A stretch of 30,221 nt of DNA, taken from NCBI GenBank assembly GCA_965218585.1, contig CBDCLE010000016.1:1-30221 (forward strand). Direction: 5' to 3'. A program made the translations under genes and the position numbers. The notes beneath the pieces are model-generated. The model made no database searches. It was not told the origin of the DNA and saw nothing but the letters and a program-made list of their open reading frames with translations. Origin of the DNA: Terriglobia bacterium (lineage in GTDB: Bacteria > Acidobacteriota > Terriglobia > 20CM-2-55-15). Below, piece after piece: positions 11,328 through 15,538 of this stretch. How positions within the stretch are numbered: position 1 is the stretch's first letter; each line of letters begins with the position of its first letter.

Positions 11328-12935
11328 CCAGTCCCAGTCCATCCAGCATCTTTCCATGGCGAGGATGTACTGAACTTCCGGGAGCGCATCGTTCGCCTTA
11401 ATGGCCCGCTCGATAGCCTCTCTTGCCCGGGGTCCCGCCTCAGAGGGGGCGCTGAAATTCATCTGCTGGCGAGCGGCCCATACGGCTGCAATGCCTGCGT
11501 AACCCAGCGCCGGCTCCTTCCTCCGCGCGCGCTCGAAATATTCGAGCGCAAGGTCCAGTTCAGCTGGCGTCAGTTTGTTCCAATGGAAATACCCTTTCTG
11601 GTAGGCATCGTAAGCTTCTGGATCGACCTGGCGGGTGTTGGCGAACTGATCCTGTTCTTCGGGCGTCAACTCAACGCTGATCTGCTCCGCAATCGCCAGC
11701 GTCACTTCGCTTTGGACAATGAGTACTTCCGCCAAGTCCCGGATATAGGAGTCTCCCCAGAGGATTTCTTCTGTTCGCGCATCGATCAGCTGTACCGTGA
11801 TGCGCAGTTGATCGCCAAAACGGCTGGCCGAACCTTCGACGAGCGCCCCCACCCCGAGTTCCCGTGCGATCTGGGAAATCGACTTATCGCTGTTCCTGTA
11901 ACGGGAGGCCGATGTACGTGAGATCACTTTCAGCGCCCGGATCTTCGCAAGCTCCGTGATGAGGCTCTCGGTCAACCCCTCGGAGAAATACTCCTGGTCA
12001 GGATTTCCTGAGCCGTTGGTCAGCGGCAACACCGCGATTGATGGACGCGTTCTGGCCGAGGAGGATGCAATACGGACGGACGGCTGACCGGCCTCGACCC
12101 GCTCGAATTCATGGACGGCGTCGGTGACGCTCGGCAGCCTGCGCTCCGAATCCTTCTCGAGGCACTGCCGCAGAAGCTCGTGCATCCGATCCGGAGTCGA
12201 TCGTGGCAAGGCGTCCCAATCTGGCGCCCGCTCCAGAATCGCAGCAATCGTATCCGCAAAGGTCTTGCGGGAAAACGGCTGTTTACCCGAAAGCAACTCG
12301 TATACGAGGCAGCCGAATGCCCACACATCCGCACGGGAATCCGTTGGCTCACCGCGGGCTTGCTCAGGGCTCATGTAGGCGGGTGTGCCCAAAATCTGGC
12401 CGGCCTCTGTAGCCACACTGAGCGTCTCCTGTTGCGAAAATTCGAGGTTCGCCCCAGCCAATACGTTCTTCGCCAGACCGAAATCCAGCACCTTGATGCG
12501 ACCCTCGGGGGTGAGCTTGATGTTGGCGGGCTTGATGTCCCTGTGCGCAATCCCCCTTGCGTGAGCCGACTCTAATGCCTCGGCAATCTGCAGGCCGACC
12601 CTCAGCACCTCGTCCACTGGAAACGGCCCGCTGCGATCGAGCCTCTCGGCCAGTGTTTCCCCTTCCACCAGTTCCAATACGATGTAACTACCGTCCTCCG
12701 ATTCCTCGAGACCATAGATTGACGCGATGTTGGGATGGTTGAGTGCTGCCAGCATTTTCGCTTCTCGCTCGAATCGAGCCCGGCGATCGGAGGACGCAGC
12801 AAACTCTTCAGGAAGGGTCTTAATGGCCACTTCACGACCTAATTTCGTGTCACGCGCACGCCACACTTCCCCCATCCCACCCTTGCCTAAGAGCGTTGAG
12901 ATCTCGTAGTGGCCAAGTTTGGTGCCAGATTCCAT
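11328..12935 (-). pseudogene. Hanks-type Ser/Thr kinase with TolB_N-like and TPR domains, 3'-truncated by IS21
   Basis: LGKGGMGEV, VAIK, HRDIKPAN, DFG, YMSPEQ; SIAVLPL.N..G.PDQEYFSEG domain; the TPR region is cut at WMDWDW. Confidence 0.9.
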
Positions 12936-13022
12936 GATTTTGAAGTGTCGTGCGGTCATAGACCCCACCTACAGAAAATATGGCTAAATATAACTATAGG
13001 TGGGAGTTATTCGCAAGAAAAG

Positions 13023-13060
13023 CCTCAAGTCCTCGCAAACGACCTTGTCAGACTCTGAGA
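13023..13060 (-). repeat. Divergent, inverted copy 5 of the 16-6-16 site
   Basis: Minus strand reads TCTCAGAGTCTGACAA-GGTCGT-TTGCGAGGACTTGAGG; the arms resemble copy 4. Confidence 0.55.
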
Positions 13061-13215
13061 TCCTGATTTCAGGAACTCAAAGCTTAAACCTTGCCTTATG
13101 TCATTAATTTGAGCTATTTAGACACCATGGATTGACCTGCCCTGGCCTCGTACGCGTGGGTTATGTTGCGGGGCGAGGAACCTTCGACACAGAGCCACAA
13201 CGAGGAGGGCAGGTC

Positions 13216-14346
13216 ATGAACAAGTGTAGTGCATACGTTGGACTGGACGTTCACAAGGACACGATCGCGGTGGCGGTAGCGCTGCCCGGACGTGAGGCGC
13301 CGGTGTACCGGGGCGAGATCAAGAATCAACGCAAATCGCTGCTGCGACTCATTCGCAGCCTGAGTCCGCACGCAGAGGTGTTGAGCTTCTGCTACGAGGC
13401 GGGACCGTGCGGGTATGGGGTGTATCGAGAGATCATCGACACCGGCCACTATTGCGAGGTGGTCGCGCCGAGCCTGATCCCGCGGCGCGCGGGGGAGCGA
13501 GTGAAGACGGATCGGCGCGACGCGGTGAAGCTGGCGCGGCTGCATCGGTCGGGGGAGCTGACGGCGGTGTGGGTGCCCGACGAGGAGCAGGAGGCGATGC
13601 GCGACCTGACGCGGGCGCGCGAGGACATGAAGGCGATCGAGGCCAAGGCTCGGCAGCGACTGGGGGCGTTTCTGCTGCGTCATGATCGAGTGTATCGGGA
13701 AGGCAAGAGCCGGTGGACGCAACGGCACTTTCGGTGGCTGGAGGAGCAGCGGTTCGAGCATCCGGTACAGCAGGTGGTGTTTCAGGAATACGTCGATACG
13801 GTGATGGAGGCGCGCCGCCGCGTGGCGGGCCTGGAAGGGCAGATGCGCGAGGTGTTGGAGCAGTGGTCGCTGCGTCCGATGGTCGAGGCGCTGATCGCGT
13901 TGCGCGGGGTGGATGTGGTCACGGCCATGACGGTGCTGGCCGAACTCGGGGACCTGACGCGTTTTGATTCGCCGCGCGAGCTGATGAGCTTTCTGGGGCT
14001 GGTGCCGAGCGAGCACTCCTCGGGGCCGCGGCGGCGCCAAGGAGCCATCACGAAAACAGGCAATGGACACGTGCGCCGCGTGCTGGTTGAATCGGCCTGG
14101 AGCTACCGGCTCCCTGCGCGCAAAACCAGGCACTTGAGATGCAAGGCGAGTGCGGCGCCGCCAGCAGTGCAGGCCATCGCCTGGGCAGCCCAGAAGCGGC
14201 TGTGTGCGCGGTACCGGCATCTGTATAGCGCGGGCAAGGCGAAGTGCGTGGTCACCACCGCGGTGGCCCGCGAGCTGGTGGGGTTCATCTGGGCGATTGC
14301 TTGCGAGGTGATGGGCCGAGCCCATGCAACGCGGGCGCGGAGCTGA
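13216..14346 (+). CDS. IS110 DEDD recombinase/transposase
   Basis: YVGLDVHK, CYEAGPCGY, KTDRRDA, GLVPSEHSSG, ITKTGN, AVARELVGFIW; GGAGG RBS. Confidence 0.95.
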   Translation: MNKCSAYVGLDVHKDTIAVAVALPGREAPVYRGEIKNQRKSLLRLIRSLSPHAEVLSFCYEAGPCGYGVYREIIDTGHYCEVVAPSLIPRRAGERVKTDRRDAVKLARLHRSGELTAVWVPDEEQEAMRDLTRAREDMKAIEAKARQRLGAFLLRHDRVYREGKSRWTQRHFRWLEEQRFEHPVQQVVFQEYVDTVMEARRRVAGLEGQMREVLEQWSLRPMVEALIALRGVDVVTAMTVLAELGDLTRFDSPRELMSFLGLVPSEHSSGPRRRQGAITKTGNGHVRRVLVESAWSYRLPARKTRHLRCKASAAPPAVQAIAWAAQKRLCARYRHLYSAGKAKCVVTTAVARELVGFIWAIACEVMGRAHATRARS

Positions 14347-14498
14347 GAGATGGGCCGGAGTTCTCCACACCTTGCCACTGCTCCGCCGTGTATTCGAAGC
14401 ACGCGGTGCCATGGACAAGGTGTGGAAAACTCCTCCGACGCCTCCCCGGGCGCAATGCCATCATGCGCTTCCGGAGCAAGGCTGGACCCAAAAAACGT

Positions 14499-14700
14499 AA
14501 TGTGTTGGATTCAGGGCGTGGCAGGCCGGTGAGGAGAATCCTCGTGCACGCTATGAGAGGCTTGGCTCAGCCAGACCGACCCACGTCCTTAGACCGAGGC
14601 AGCTCCGCGACGAAGTGATGTCAGGTGGTAGCCAACCCACGAATATCAGAGTGATCCACCGTCGCGAATCATGCCGGCCGCGCCCTGAATCCAGCACATT
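14499..14700 (+). ncRNA. Predicted bridge RNA/seekRNA of the IS1111 element
   Basis: Long closing stem (AATGTGTTGGATTCAGGGCG / CGCCCTGAATCCAGCACATT) enclosing two stem-loops. TGCACGCTA is the reverse complement of the reconstructed target TAGCGTGCA, and ATATCAGA matches the predicted circle junction. Confidence 0.75.
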
Positions 14701-14767
14701 GAAGGAGGCGCATTCGAGAAACGTAACGGAAGCTTGACAGGGTCAATCCATATCAGCGTGCAAACGC

Positions 14768-15538
14768 CTAAACGAACGCCGGTGAGACGTCAGCGCCTTC
14801 CTTCTGAAGCTTTGAATCGAAGAGCGTGTAGGGGTTGACGTTTGCCAGGGCCGCGGTGACCGATTCGCGCACATCGCCGTAATTCTGACTCATCCGCTCA
14901 AGGAATTCGCGGATATCCTTGCGCGGTCCGTCTTTCTCCGCACACACACAGCCTATCCCCACCAGGTCGTCCTGCTCGACGTATTCGCGGGTGAGTTCTT
15001 CGGAAACAAACACGAGGGGCCGGATGACACGGATCGATCCTTTGCGCGACTCTGCAACGGGAGGTAGTGCTGCAATACGTCCGTTGAACAGAACATTTCT
15101 CAGCAACGCTTCCGCACAGTCGTCGGCCGTGTGGCCCAGAGCCAGGACATCGCATCCTAATTCCGATGCGATCTCATAGAGAGCGCCCCTCCTGTTCCGA
15201 CTGCAGACATCGCATCCGTGTTCAACGCCATCCTCCACCAGACCGAGCGTTCTGGGTTCGTTCCTCACAACCCAGTCGATACCCATCTCGCCCAAAGGCT
15301 TCCGGAGCTTTTCAATGGGTTCAGTGAATTTCCCCTGTTCAATTGTTACCGCCACGATTTCAAAATCAAAAGGCGCACGCCGACGGTACGCACTGAGCGC
15401 ATGCAGGAGACACAGACTGTCCTTTCCTCCGGACACGCCGACCCCAACCCGGTCTCCGCTCCGAAGCATCTGGAAAGTACCCATGGCACGGCCGATACGA
15501 TCGAGGACTTTTCGTTTGACGTCGGTCTCGCTCATCAT
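14768..15538 (-). CDS. ttcA: tRNA 2-thiocytidine(32) synthetase TtcA family
   Basis: PP-loop SGGKDS, CDVCSRNRRG, LGHTADD, IRPL and a C-terminal CxC. Confidence 0.85.
   Translation of the reverse strand: MMSETDVKRKVLDRIGRAMGTFQMLRSGDRVGVGVSGGKDSLCLLHALSAYRRRAPFDFEIVAVTIEQGKFTEPIEKLRKPLGEMGIDWVVRNEPRTLGLVEDGVEHGCDVCSRNRRGALYEIASELGCDVLALGHTADDCAEALLRNVLFNGRIAALPPVAESRKGSIRVIRPLVFVSEELTREYVEQDDLVGIGCVCAEKDGPRKDIREFLERMSQNYGDVRESVTAALANVNPYTLFDSKLQKEGADVSPAFV

Follow-up and report, generated by a model that had tools for sequence, protein, structure and literature searches.

RNA-guided recombination by insertion sequences of the IS110 and IS1111 types was published in 2024. For the IS1111-type elements ISEc11, ISKpn4, ISPst6 and ISPa11, Siddiquee et al. 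(2024; PMC11187229) describe a DEDD transposase with the motif GL-P----SG, subterminal inverted repeats with short extensions, a long non-coding region downstream of the gene, and a seekRNA with two short target matches, of which the top-strand match lies 5' of the bottom-strand match; relatives of these elements show natural retargeting. The bridge RNA of IS621, as Durrant et al. (2024; PMC11208160) and Hiraizumi et al. (2024; PMC11208158) present it, has a target and a donor internal loop with one strand for each target half; according to Hiraizumi et al., its left guide binds the bottom strand and its right guide the top strand. Here we analyze a 30,221-nucleotide (nt) stretch of a Terriglobia bacterium (assembly GCA_965218585.1, contig CBDCLE010000016.1), called the window throughout, which corresponds to C16 among the 26 contigs of the 4.55-Mb assembly. 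Judged by its sequence, the stretch under study within the window is an IS1111-type (IS110-family) insertion sequence (IS) with an intact transposase gene.

The window element shares with the ISEc11-type elements each of the features just named, including the order of the guides, since the segment complementary to the top strand (14545-53) lies 5' of the other (14588-92). It differs from them in its guides and its target and in the length of its transposase (376 versus about 340 amino acids, aa), a comparison of described features with an element known only from its DNA. With IS621 it has in common the two internal loops with one strand per target half, the 2-nt core, and a protein with two catalytic domains, one RuvC-like and the other a Tnp domain that bears a serine. 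In contrast to IS621, the RNA lies 3' rather than 5' of the gene, the guide order is reversed, the core is AG instead of CT, and the element has long subterminal repeats; the two loops are set in a multi-helix junction, and the protein is only remotely similar.

We conclude, with high confidence, that the window element is a recently active IS1111-type insertion sequence with a guide RNA of about 200 nt from its 3' non-coding region (14499-14700). The main proof is comparative: the copies in the genome, the joint variation of guides and flanks in relatives, and the conserved fold. Below we report the anatomy of the element, its copies with their flanks, the conservation and covariation of the fold, the co-variation of guides with flanks and the Tn3 context of the insertions.

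Ends, copies and transposase

We read positions 12800-15200 directly and checked there every coordinate and string of the original prediction, which had proposed an IS1111 bridge RNA or seekRNA with readable target and donor guides; its AG-core junctions, loop strings and coordinates all proved exact (Table 1). At the left junction GCTATTT-AG is followed by ACACCATGG, and at the right junction CCATATC-AG is followed by CGTGCAAA. The left end reads ACACC and then the 11-bp repeat ATGGATTGACC; the right end has GGTCAATCCAT and then ATC-AG. Subterminal inverted repeats of 7-17 bp are given for the IS1111 group in PMC11208160, and the 11-bp repeats of the window element, with their few terminal bases, agree with this. 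The gene leaves 94 nt of non-coding DNA at the left end and 410 nt at the right, and the predicted RNA lies in the latter, downstream of the gene.

The translation matches PF01548 (DEDD_Tnp_IS110, 3.9e-16) and PF02371 (Transposase_20, 1.9e-20) in Pfam, and NF033542 of NCBIfam ('IS110 family RNA-guided transposase') with 264.7 bits against a cut-off of 140. It contains the C-terminal motif GLVPSEHSSG, which fits G(L)-P----S(t)G, the motif with a conserved S/T-G that PMC11187229 gives for the C-terminal domain of the IS110 family. In the plasmid collection the closest relative with a name is ISSso6; its product, annotated 'IS110-like element ISSso6 family transposase', shows 47% identity across 96% of the query. 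Among solved structures we found remote matches only, to ISCro4 and IS621 (IS621, E = 4e-7 over about 95 residues). The domain matches, the subterminal repeats, the long 3' non-coding region and the 2-nt core together bear out the earlier assignment to the IS1111 type with an intact reading frame.

Table 1. Features of the window element and their positions in the window (RNA features are predicted)
Feature	Position	Strand	Description
Insertion sequence	13122..14756	+	1635 bp, core assigned to right end
AG core, left copy	13120..13121	+	Last two bases of left target ...TTT-AG
AG core, right copy	14755..14756	+	Last two bases of element
Left subterminal inverted repeat ATGGATTGACC	13127..13137	+	11 bp; 5 nt inside end, 7 nt with core
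Right subterminal inverted repeat GGTCAATCCAT	14741..14751	+	3 nt inside end, 5 nt with core
Right target CGTGCA	14757..14762	+	Guide matches 6/6
Transposase gene, 376 aa	13216..14346	+	Only long frame; DEDD/RuvC-like and Transposase_20 domains
Bridge RNA/seekRNA (predicted)	14499..14700	+	About 200 nt, P1 to P1'; RNAalifold and pair counts, 54 relatives
P1, 5' strand	14499..14515 (14499-14507, 14510-14515)	+	Pairs with 14684-14689, 14692-14700
GGAG junction helix	14533..14536	+	Pairs with CUCC 14603-06; encloses target loop
Target-loop base stem CCUC(G)	14540..14544	+	Pairs with (C)GAGG 14595-99
Right-target guide TGCACGCTA	14545..14553	+	Exact reverse complement of T-AG-CGTGCA; pairs with top strand
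Left-target guide CUU + core AG	14588..14592	+	Identical to top strand, so pairs with bottom strand
Donor-loop stem GCGACG	14607..14612	+	Pairs with CGUCGC 14660-65
Candidate right-donor guide GAUGUC	14617..14622	+	Complementary to core G + ACA(U)C of consensus left end; weak
Donor-loop inner hairpin	14625..14640	+	GUGG, loop, CCAC
Left-donor guide ATATCAGA (AUAUC + core AG + A)	14643..14650	+	Equals right end ATATC + AG + first left-end base
TTGACA, -35-like hexamer	14734..14739	+	17 nt before right junction
Left-end hairpin	13133..13215	+	Repeat region (TGACCTGCCCT) with Shine-Dalgarno and start region; z = -4.2

A DNA search of the assembly found five full copies (C16, two on C4, C10 and C19) and several fragments. 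The full copies are 99.6-99.8% identical, with 3-6 differences from the window copy over 1635 positions, and these are substitutions only; the intact frame was read in the window copy. No difference among any of the genome copies falls within 14494-14708, so that the RNA region is identical in all. AG stands at both junctions in 5/5 full copies with no longer repeat, and hence without a target-site duplication. TTAG is present at all six readable left junctions and CTTAG at four of them, whilst CGT follows at 6/6 exact-match right junctions and at two further junctions on C9 read by eye; two right junctions carry CGTGCA. As the original prediction had expected of further insertions, all of them share TTAG-CGT (the hyphen marks the junction here and below). 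The element was not found in 40 related genomes searched with the DNA of 12400-15500, where only the flanking genes were found, in unlinked places, and the insertion is therefore unconfirmed against an uninterrupted site.

Some fragments are rearranged. On C9 (158686-160417) two partial copies stand head to head at 159254 with mirror-image identical right flanks, which reflects a palindromic rearrangement or else an assembly artefact. The two copies have C changed to A at the position of window 14733, adjoining TTGACA. C19:188597-188957 holds the first ~360 bp of the element and C10:133836-135127 the remainder, with an overlap of about 8-11 bp; the C10 fragment and the full C19 copy have their 35-nt right flank in common. 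These two fragments are one copy split by insertion, rearrangement or an assembly join.

Relatives were collected by a scan with one genome per species, which reported at least 527; the best 80 of these, analyzed here, have 57-97% protein identity and come from many phyla. With the window element they make a set of 81, in which ends were called by a simple end pattern and a repeat check. Both ends were found in 62 of the 81, the end architecture is common to all 62, and both subterminal inverted repeats are conserved. The AG core is present at both junctions in 61 of these 62. The remaining 19 elements lack one or both ends in the examined stretch, several of them on short contigs, and the RNA core was still seen in 12 of the 19.

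The exception to the core is locus L056, whose right junction reads ..ATCAA where other elements have ..ATCAG and whose left junction has AG. L056 and L057 are two copies on two contigs of one metagenome-assembled genome (MAG) with a right flank in common, and the AA junction may stem from insertion or repair with a mismatched core. The nearest relative, L019, comes from a MAG labelled Terriglobia; its protein is 97% identical and its left junction reads CCCTTAG. It lacks the last 12 codons, and neither the RNA core motif nor a right end was found within 1500 nt downstream, so this copy is probably truncated or interrupted.

Guides vary together with flanks

The flanks of the 62 relatives with both ends differ widely. 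In L020, the closest full relative at 88% protein identity, both the guides and the flank differ from those of the window element. An alignment of the 3' regions (55 distinct) shows a conserved frame with two windows of free variation, at 14545-50 and around 14588-90, where the right-target and left-target guides are predicted. We compared the bases in these windows with the flanks of the same element. Elements entered the comparison if their flanks reached 12 nt and their 3' region exceeded 200 nt; there were 55, of which one duplicate was dropped, and alignment columns fixed the register.

In this set of 54, the right guide is complementary to its own right flank in 43, 43, 45, 41, 31 and 20 elements at positions +1 to +6, respectively, against fractions of about 0.3 at +1 to +5 and 0.29 at +6 for non-cognate pairs. 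The left guide is identical to its own left flank in 53 elements at -1, 48 at -2 and 29 at -3; the non-cognate fractions are 0.84, 0.30 and 0.26. Over the 41 distinct guide pairs, own flanks match at 6.57 of the nine variable positions, compared with 3.18 +/- 0.22 for permuted flanks, and none of 10,000 permutations gave as high a value. This score is on the conservative side, since in a few elements (L028/L030 and L050/L067) an extra base in the guide shifts the register; by eye these match at 10/10. The association of guides with flanks is far beyond chance.

In the window element, positions 14545-50 would pair with +6 to +1, 14551-52 (CU) with the core and 14553 (A) with -1. The claimed nine-of-nine reverse complement, TGCACGCTA at 14545-53, is present as described, and so is TTAG within the target loop at 14589-92. 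The left-target match, previously put at 4 nt, is better described as a family guide of three variable nucleotides plus the core (CTT-AG), two of the three matching the flank of the window copy. The programmed site is thus the 11-bp CTT-AG-CGTGCA, with CTTAGCGTGCA as the predicted insertion target, and the window copy's own site, TTT-AG-CGTGCA, matches it at 10/11 positions. Counting both strands, the 30-kb window has a single copy of the 9-mer; shuffles gave 0.12 copies per window, with at least one copy in 12/100, and the chance of finding it on one strand of the 413-nt non-coding region is about 0.001.

A recurring target was seen elsewhere in the family. L027, L037, L047, L055, L071, L087 and others carry guides for, and are inserted at, sites like CTAG-GAG(C/T)CTGTCGG, in hosts that include Halomonas, Desulfobulbaceae, Gammaproteobacteria, an Actinomycetes MAG and Burkholderiaceae. 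This widespread target may be a repeat or the end of a mobile element.

Fold of the predicted RNA

RNAalifold, applied to 54 distinct aligned RNAs, returned an outer stem, the GGAG/CUCC helix, a target stem-loop and a donor stem-loop. It predicts 37 pairs, and in 21 of them both partners change while the pairing is kept. Pair counts were made on an edited set, also of 37 pairs, to which the fifth pair of the target stem had been added and from which one isolated pair had been dropped. In this set 92.5% of cells hold standard pairs, compared with 34.7-44.4% when partners are slid by 1-3 columns, and 271 cells are changed on both sides, compared with 31-61. The observed values were reached by 0/500 shuffles on four of five measures, and by 1/500 on the fifth (further standard pair types). 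The covariation that the original prediction proposed to look for is found, with pairs kept by compensatory changes in the 54 RNAs.

Two-sided pair-keeping changes occur at 14 of the 15 pairs of the outer stem P1, and at pairs 3 (9 rows) and 4 (11 rows) of the target-loop stem. In the donor-loop stem all cells (100%) pair, and the first pair has two-sided changes in 26 rows; within the inner hairpin one pair alternates between C-G (30 rows) and U-A (12 rows). The GGAG/CUCC helix is nearly invariant in the relatives, so covariation cannot show there. The loop-closing stems CCTCG/CGAGG and CGCGACG/CGTCGCG were read correctly in the window copy, but the fifth pair of the first and the seventh of the second are specific to this copy, and the conserved stems have 4 and 6 bp. 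Folding 14480-14760 as a single sequence (z = -4.2) supports the long outer stem only. Because the inner RNA of a single sequence folds no better than shuffles, the structure is drawn from comparison alone.

Directly after the transposase stop codon lies a long imperfect hairpin (14351-14435, z = -5.5), which explains part of the extra length of the 3' region relative to most relatives. Five of the 14 sites that vary among the genome copies are in or near it (14388, 14426, 14427, 14436 and 14473).

The donor loop

In the second loop, the donor match of eight out of eight at 14643-50 exists as a string, and across the family the 3' strand of the loop follows the right end. Of the 46 alignment rows with ..ATATC plus core as right end, 45 carry ATATCAG in the loop; where the right end is ..ATACCAG, the loop has ATACCAG in 8/8 rows (nine elements of one clade, mostly Halomonas). 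Because all of these belong to one clade, the change from T to C in the donor loop was probably one event. By itself the 8-mer is a weak match, as shuffles gave 0.52 copies per window and at least one copy in 43/100.

On the 5' strand of this loop, the candidate right-donor guide GAUGUC fits the left end ACACC of the window copy at 5/6 positions and has a shorter fit in most relatives (core G plus 2-5 nt). No column of the donor loop follows the variable fifth base of the left end. Mutual information for this candidate guide was dominated by clade structure and was not used as support. The comparison thus supports only the 3' strand of the donor loop as a guide. For the IS110 bridge RNA model with two guide loops, to which the locus had been fitted, this means that the target loop (with its 41 guide pairs) and the covariation of the fold agree with the model, whereas the donor loop agrees with it in its 3' strand only.

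We also considered that the element might use a short seekRNA, with the first loop as the sole guide, the second stem-loop as a scaffold for protein binding or processing, and the ends read by the protein through the subterminal repeats; some other cause would then have kept ATATCAG in the second loop. For ISEc11, PMC11187229 reports that transposition needed no more than an 82-nt RNA holding the target part, which even outperformed the long form. Lacking convincing complementarity to or covariation with the left ends, the 5' strand of the second loop agrees with such a scheme, and the ends are nearly invariant across the family, which leaves little to test. However, no part of the RNA is more conserved in the 54-RNA alignment than the second loop; its ATATCAG equals right end plus core and switches to ATACCAG exactly in the eight rows with that right end. 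Donor-matching nucleotides in the multi-loops of IS1111 RNAs are also reported by Durrant et al. (PMC11208160). We consider a short seekRNA unlikely, and prefer the RNA of about 200 nt with two loops.

Targets in terminal repeats of Tn3-family transposons

About 35 nt of right flank recur among several copies or at unoccupied sites in the genome, and with the left CTTAG these make about 38 bp. The genes on the side of the left flank are of the Tn3 family (a resolvase with HTH_7, DUF4158 and DDE_Tnp_Tn3). On C19 (180900-189600, locus L110) a single Tn3-family transposon has the element at both of its ends, each with the left end inward. Its genes are in the order tnpR, tnpA split by an IS, and a Tn3 DDE remnant up to the junction; the splitting IS encodes a DDE_Tnp_1_4 transposase of 471 aa, and the remnant corresponds to the last 119 profile positions of the Tn3 DDE domain. 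A plasmid bearing mer genes and a Tn3-family transposase has a repeat nearly identical to that of this transposon, and there an annotated IS5075 interrupts it. From these alignments, CTT-AG-CGTGCA is read as the inner end of the ~38-bp terminal inverted repeats of Tn3-family transposons.

Unoccupied paralogous repeats remain at C1 ~43511-43545 and C4 ~153976-154015, each with a mutated core (AG to AA, with the next base changed too, and AG to AT). The genome contains no free perfect target (0 CTTAGCGTGC sites).

IS4321 and IS5075 also target repeats of the Tn3 type, and are of the IS1111 type by the title of Partridge & Hall (2003), as cited in PMC11187229. In the one IS5075 plasmid example the left flank is inner and the right flank outer, the same orientation as here. 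IS4321/IS5075 differ from the window element in their ends and in their transposases, which are 24-25% identical to ours over 79% of the length, and in the point of insertion, which is about 17 bp from the inner end of the repeat in that single plasmid example of IS5075 and 5 bp from it for the window-type element. A non-exhaustive literature search returned only IS4321/IS5075 as elements aimed at Tn3-family terminal repeats. On balance, we lean slightly towards the view that the window element represents a second IS1111-type lineage, apart from IS4321/IS5075, whose guide RNA is programmed onto Tn3-family terminal repeats.

Expression signals and present activity

No complete sigma-70-like promoter was found in the integrated element. 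Among 55 distinct right ends, 34 have the exact hexamer TTGACA 16 or 17 nt ahead of the junction; it would be half a promoter, completed by a -10 from the left end only in the circle. Such a junction promoter is assumed in PMC11187229 for the seekRNA elements described there. Two metatranscriptome libraries hold the element, one with a 281-nt contig inside the gene and the other with a 183-nt contig over 14527-14708 (two differences), the latter a weak hint only.

The left-end hairpin in Table 1 is probably a translational control element. In 40 of 52 distinct leaders, a segment of 8 nt or more within the first 40 nt of the left end is exactly complementary to a segment between there and the start codon. 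The match abuts the start codon in most and lies 19-123 nt upstream in some, such as the Halomonas clade, and compensatory variants occur in relatives, for example AACCTGTCC with GGACAGGTT. The hairpin looks like a translational lock on read-through transcripts.

The copies could instead be fossils that spread in the past, with RNA and target matches that are historical and no present activity. The lack of free perfect targets would agree with this, as would the several truncated or rearranged copies and the failure to find the element in the 40 related genomes searched. We regard this as improbable because the five full copies are still 99.6-99.8% identical, the frame of the window copy is intact and the RNA is the same in all copies; the RNA-library contigs over part of the gene and the RNA region add weakly to this. 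That the 3' region is instead a cis element of DNA or mRNA (a terminator, attenuator or protein-binding site) with coincidental flank matches is very improbable, since base-pair covariation points to an RNA structure and the guides in unpaired loops change with their own flanks (0/10,000 permutations), unlike a cis element, even though the long outer stem could act as a terminator-like structure and an Rfam search of 13000-14900 at E <= 1 matched no family, only three microRNA look-alikes (E = 0.11-0.49, 21-23 bits against cut-offs of 80-90).

Two further repeats were seen in the surroundings of the copies. About 40-150 nt to the right of the C4 copy at 111118-112752 lies a repeat of ~110 nt, present in ~30 copies (96-99% identical) on many contigs. 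In the intergenic region left of the window element (12972-13060), 50-80 nt recur at 87-97% identity in at least nine other places of the genome.

Discussion

Several observations speak against a recently active IS1111-type element with a two-loop guide RNA. The transposase, at 376 aa, is outside the 330-350 aa that PMC11187229 gives as typical of IS1111. The single-sequence fold of 14527-14708 misses the consensus (z = +1.0), with 170 of 200 shuffles as stable or better. Six relatives (L045, L046, L096, L063, L070 and L032) match their flanks at only 3-4 of nine positions. The joint change of donor loop and right end is limited to one clade, and comparison of the donor-loop 5' strand with the left ends, by eye and by mutual information, found no covariation; by analogy with the 82-nt RNA of ISEc11, the donor loop may be dispensable. 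The contigs from the RNA libraries show no RNA ends, strand or level, and an RNA library can hold DNA. Lastly, the window copy itself lies outside any Tn3 repeat, at a look-alike site between a Ser/Thr kinase gene and a PP-loop ATPase gene.

Set against the comparative evidence, these points leave a recently active element with a guide RNA as our preferred reading, and we propose the following mechanism. The DEDD transposase would work with an RNA of ~200 nt transcribed from 14499-14700, which would form a multi-helix junction of the outer stem, the GGAG/CUCC helix and two internal loops, each closed by a stem. In the target loop, the 5' strand (UGCACG-CU-A) would pair with the right half of the target, on its top strand, and the 3' strand (CUU-AG) with the left half, on its bottom strand, so that both strands together would specify CTT-AG-CGTGCA, with strand exchange at the AG core, and the element would land inside the ends of Tn3-family transposons. 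The 3' strand of the donor loop (AUAUC-AG-A) would read the junction of right and left ends in the excised circle. Production of the RNA, its binding by the transposase, directed recombination via a circle and the junction promoter are steps that we infer from ISEc11, ISKpn4, ISPa11 and IS621.

The window element is a fresh example of the RNA-guided mechanism described in 2024, not a new mechanism, and current views are not overturned. As an IS1111-type system it is complete and its guides can be read, and it belongs to a part of the family unstudied at the bench. What is added here is the map of guides and flanks (41 pairs), the joint change of donor loop and right end, and the target in Tn3 repeats. 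The family alignment serves as a natural map of the guide positions that count, from +1 to +5/6 on the right and from -1 to -3 on the left. Together, the 41 natural guide pairs and the donor-loop change that follows the right end provide a natural test bench for the guide rules of IS1111-type elements, and the window element is a candidate for settling the function of the donor loop in IS1111-type RNAs, which the literature has left open.

The targeting of Tn3 ends echoes IS4321/IS5075 in an unrelated branch of the family. If the window element does represent a second such lineage, RNA retargeting would have made IS1111-type elements parasites of other transposons more than once, and the ends of Tn3-family transposons would be safe, mobile landing pads for them, with the host transposons probably disabled.

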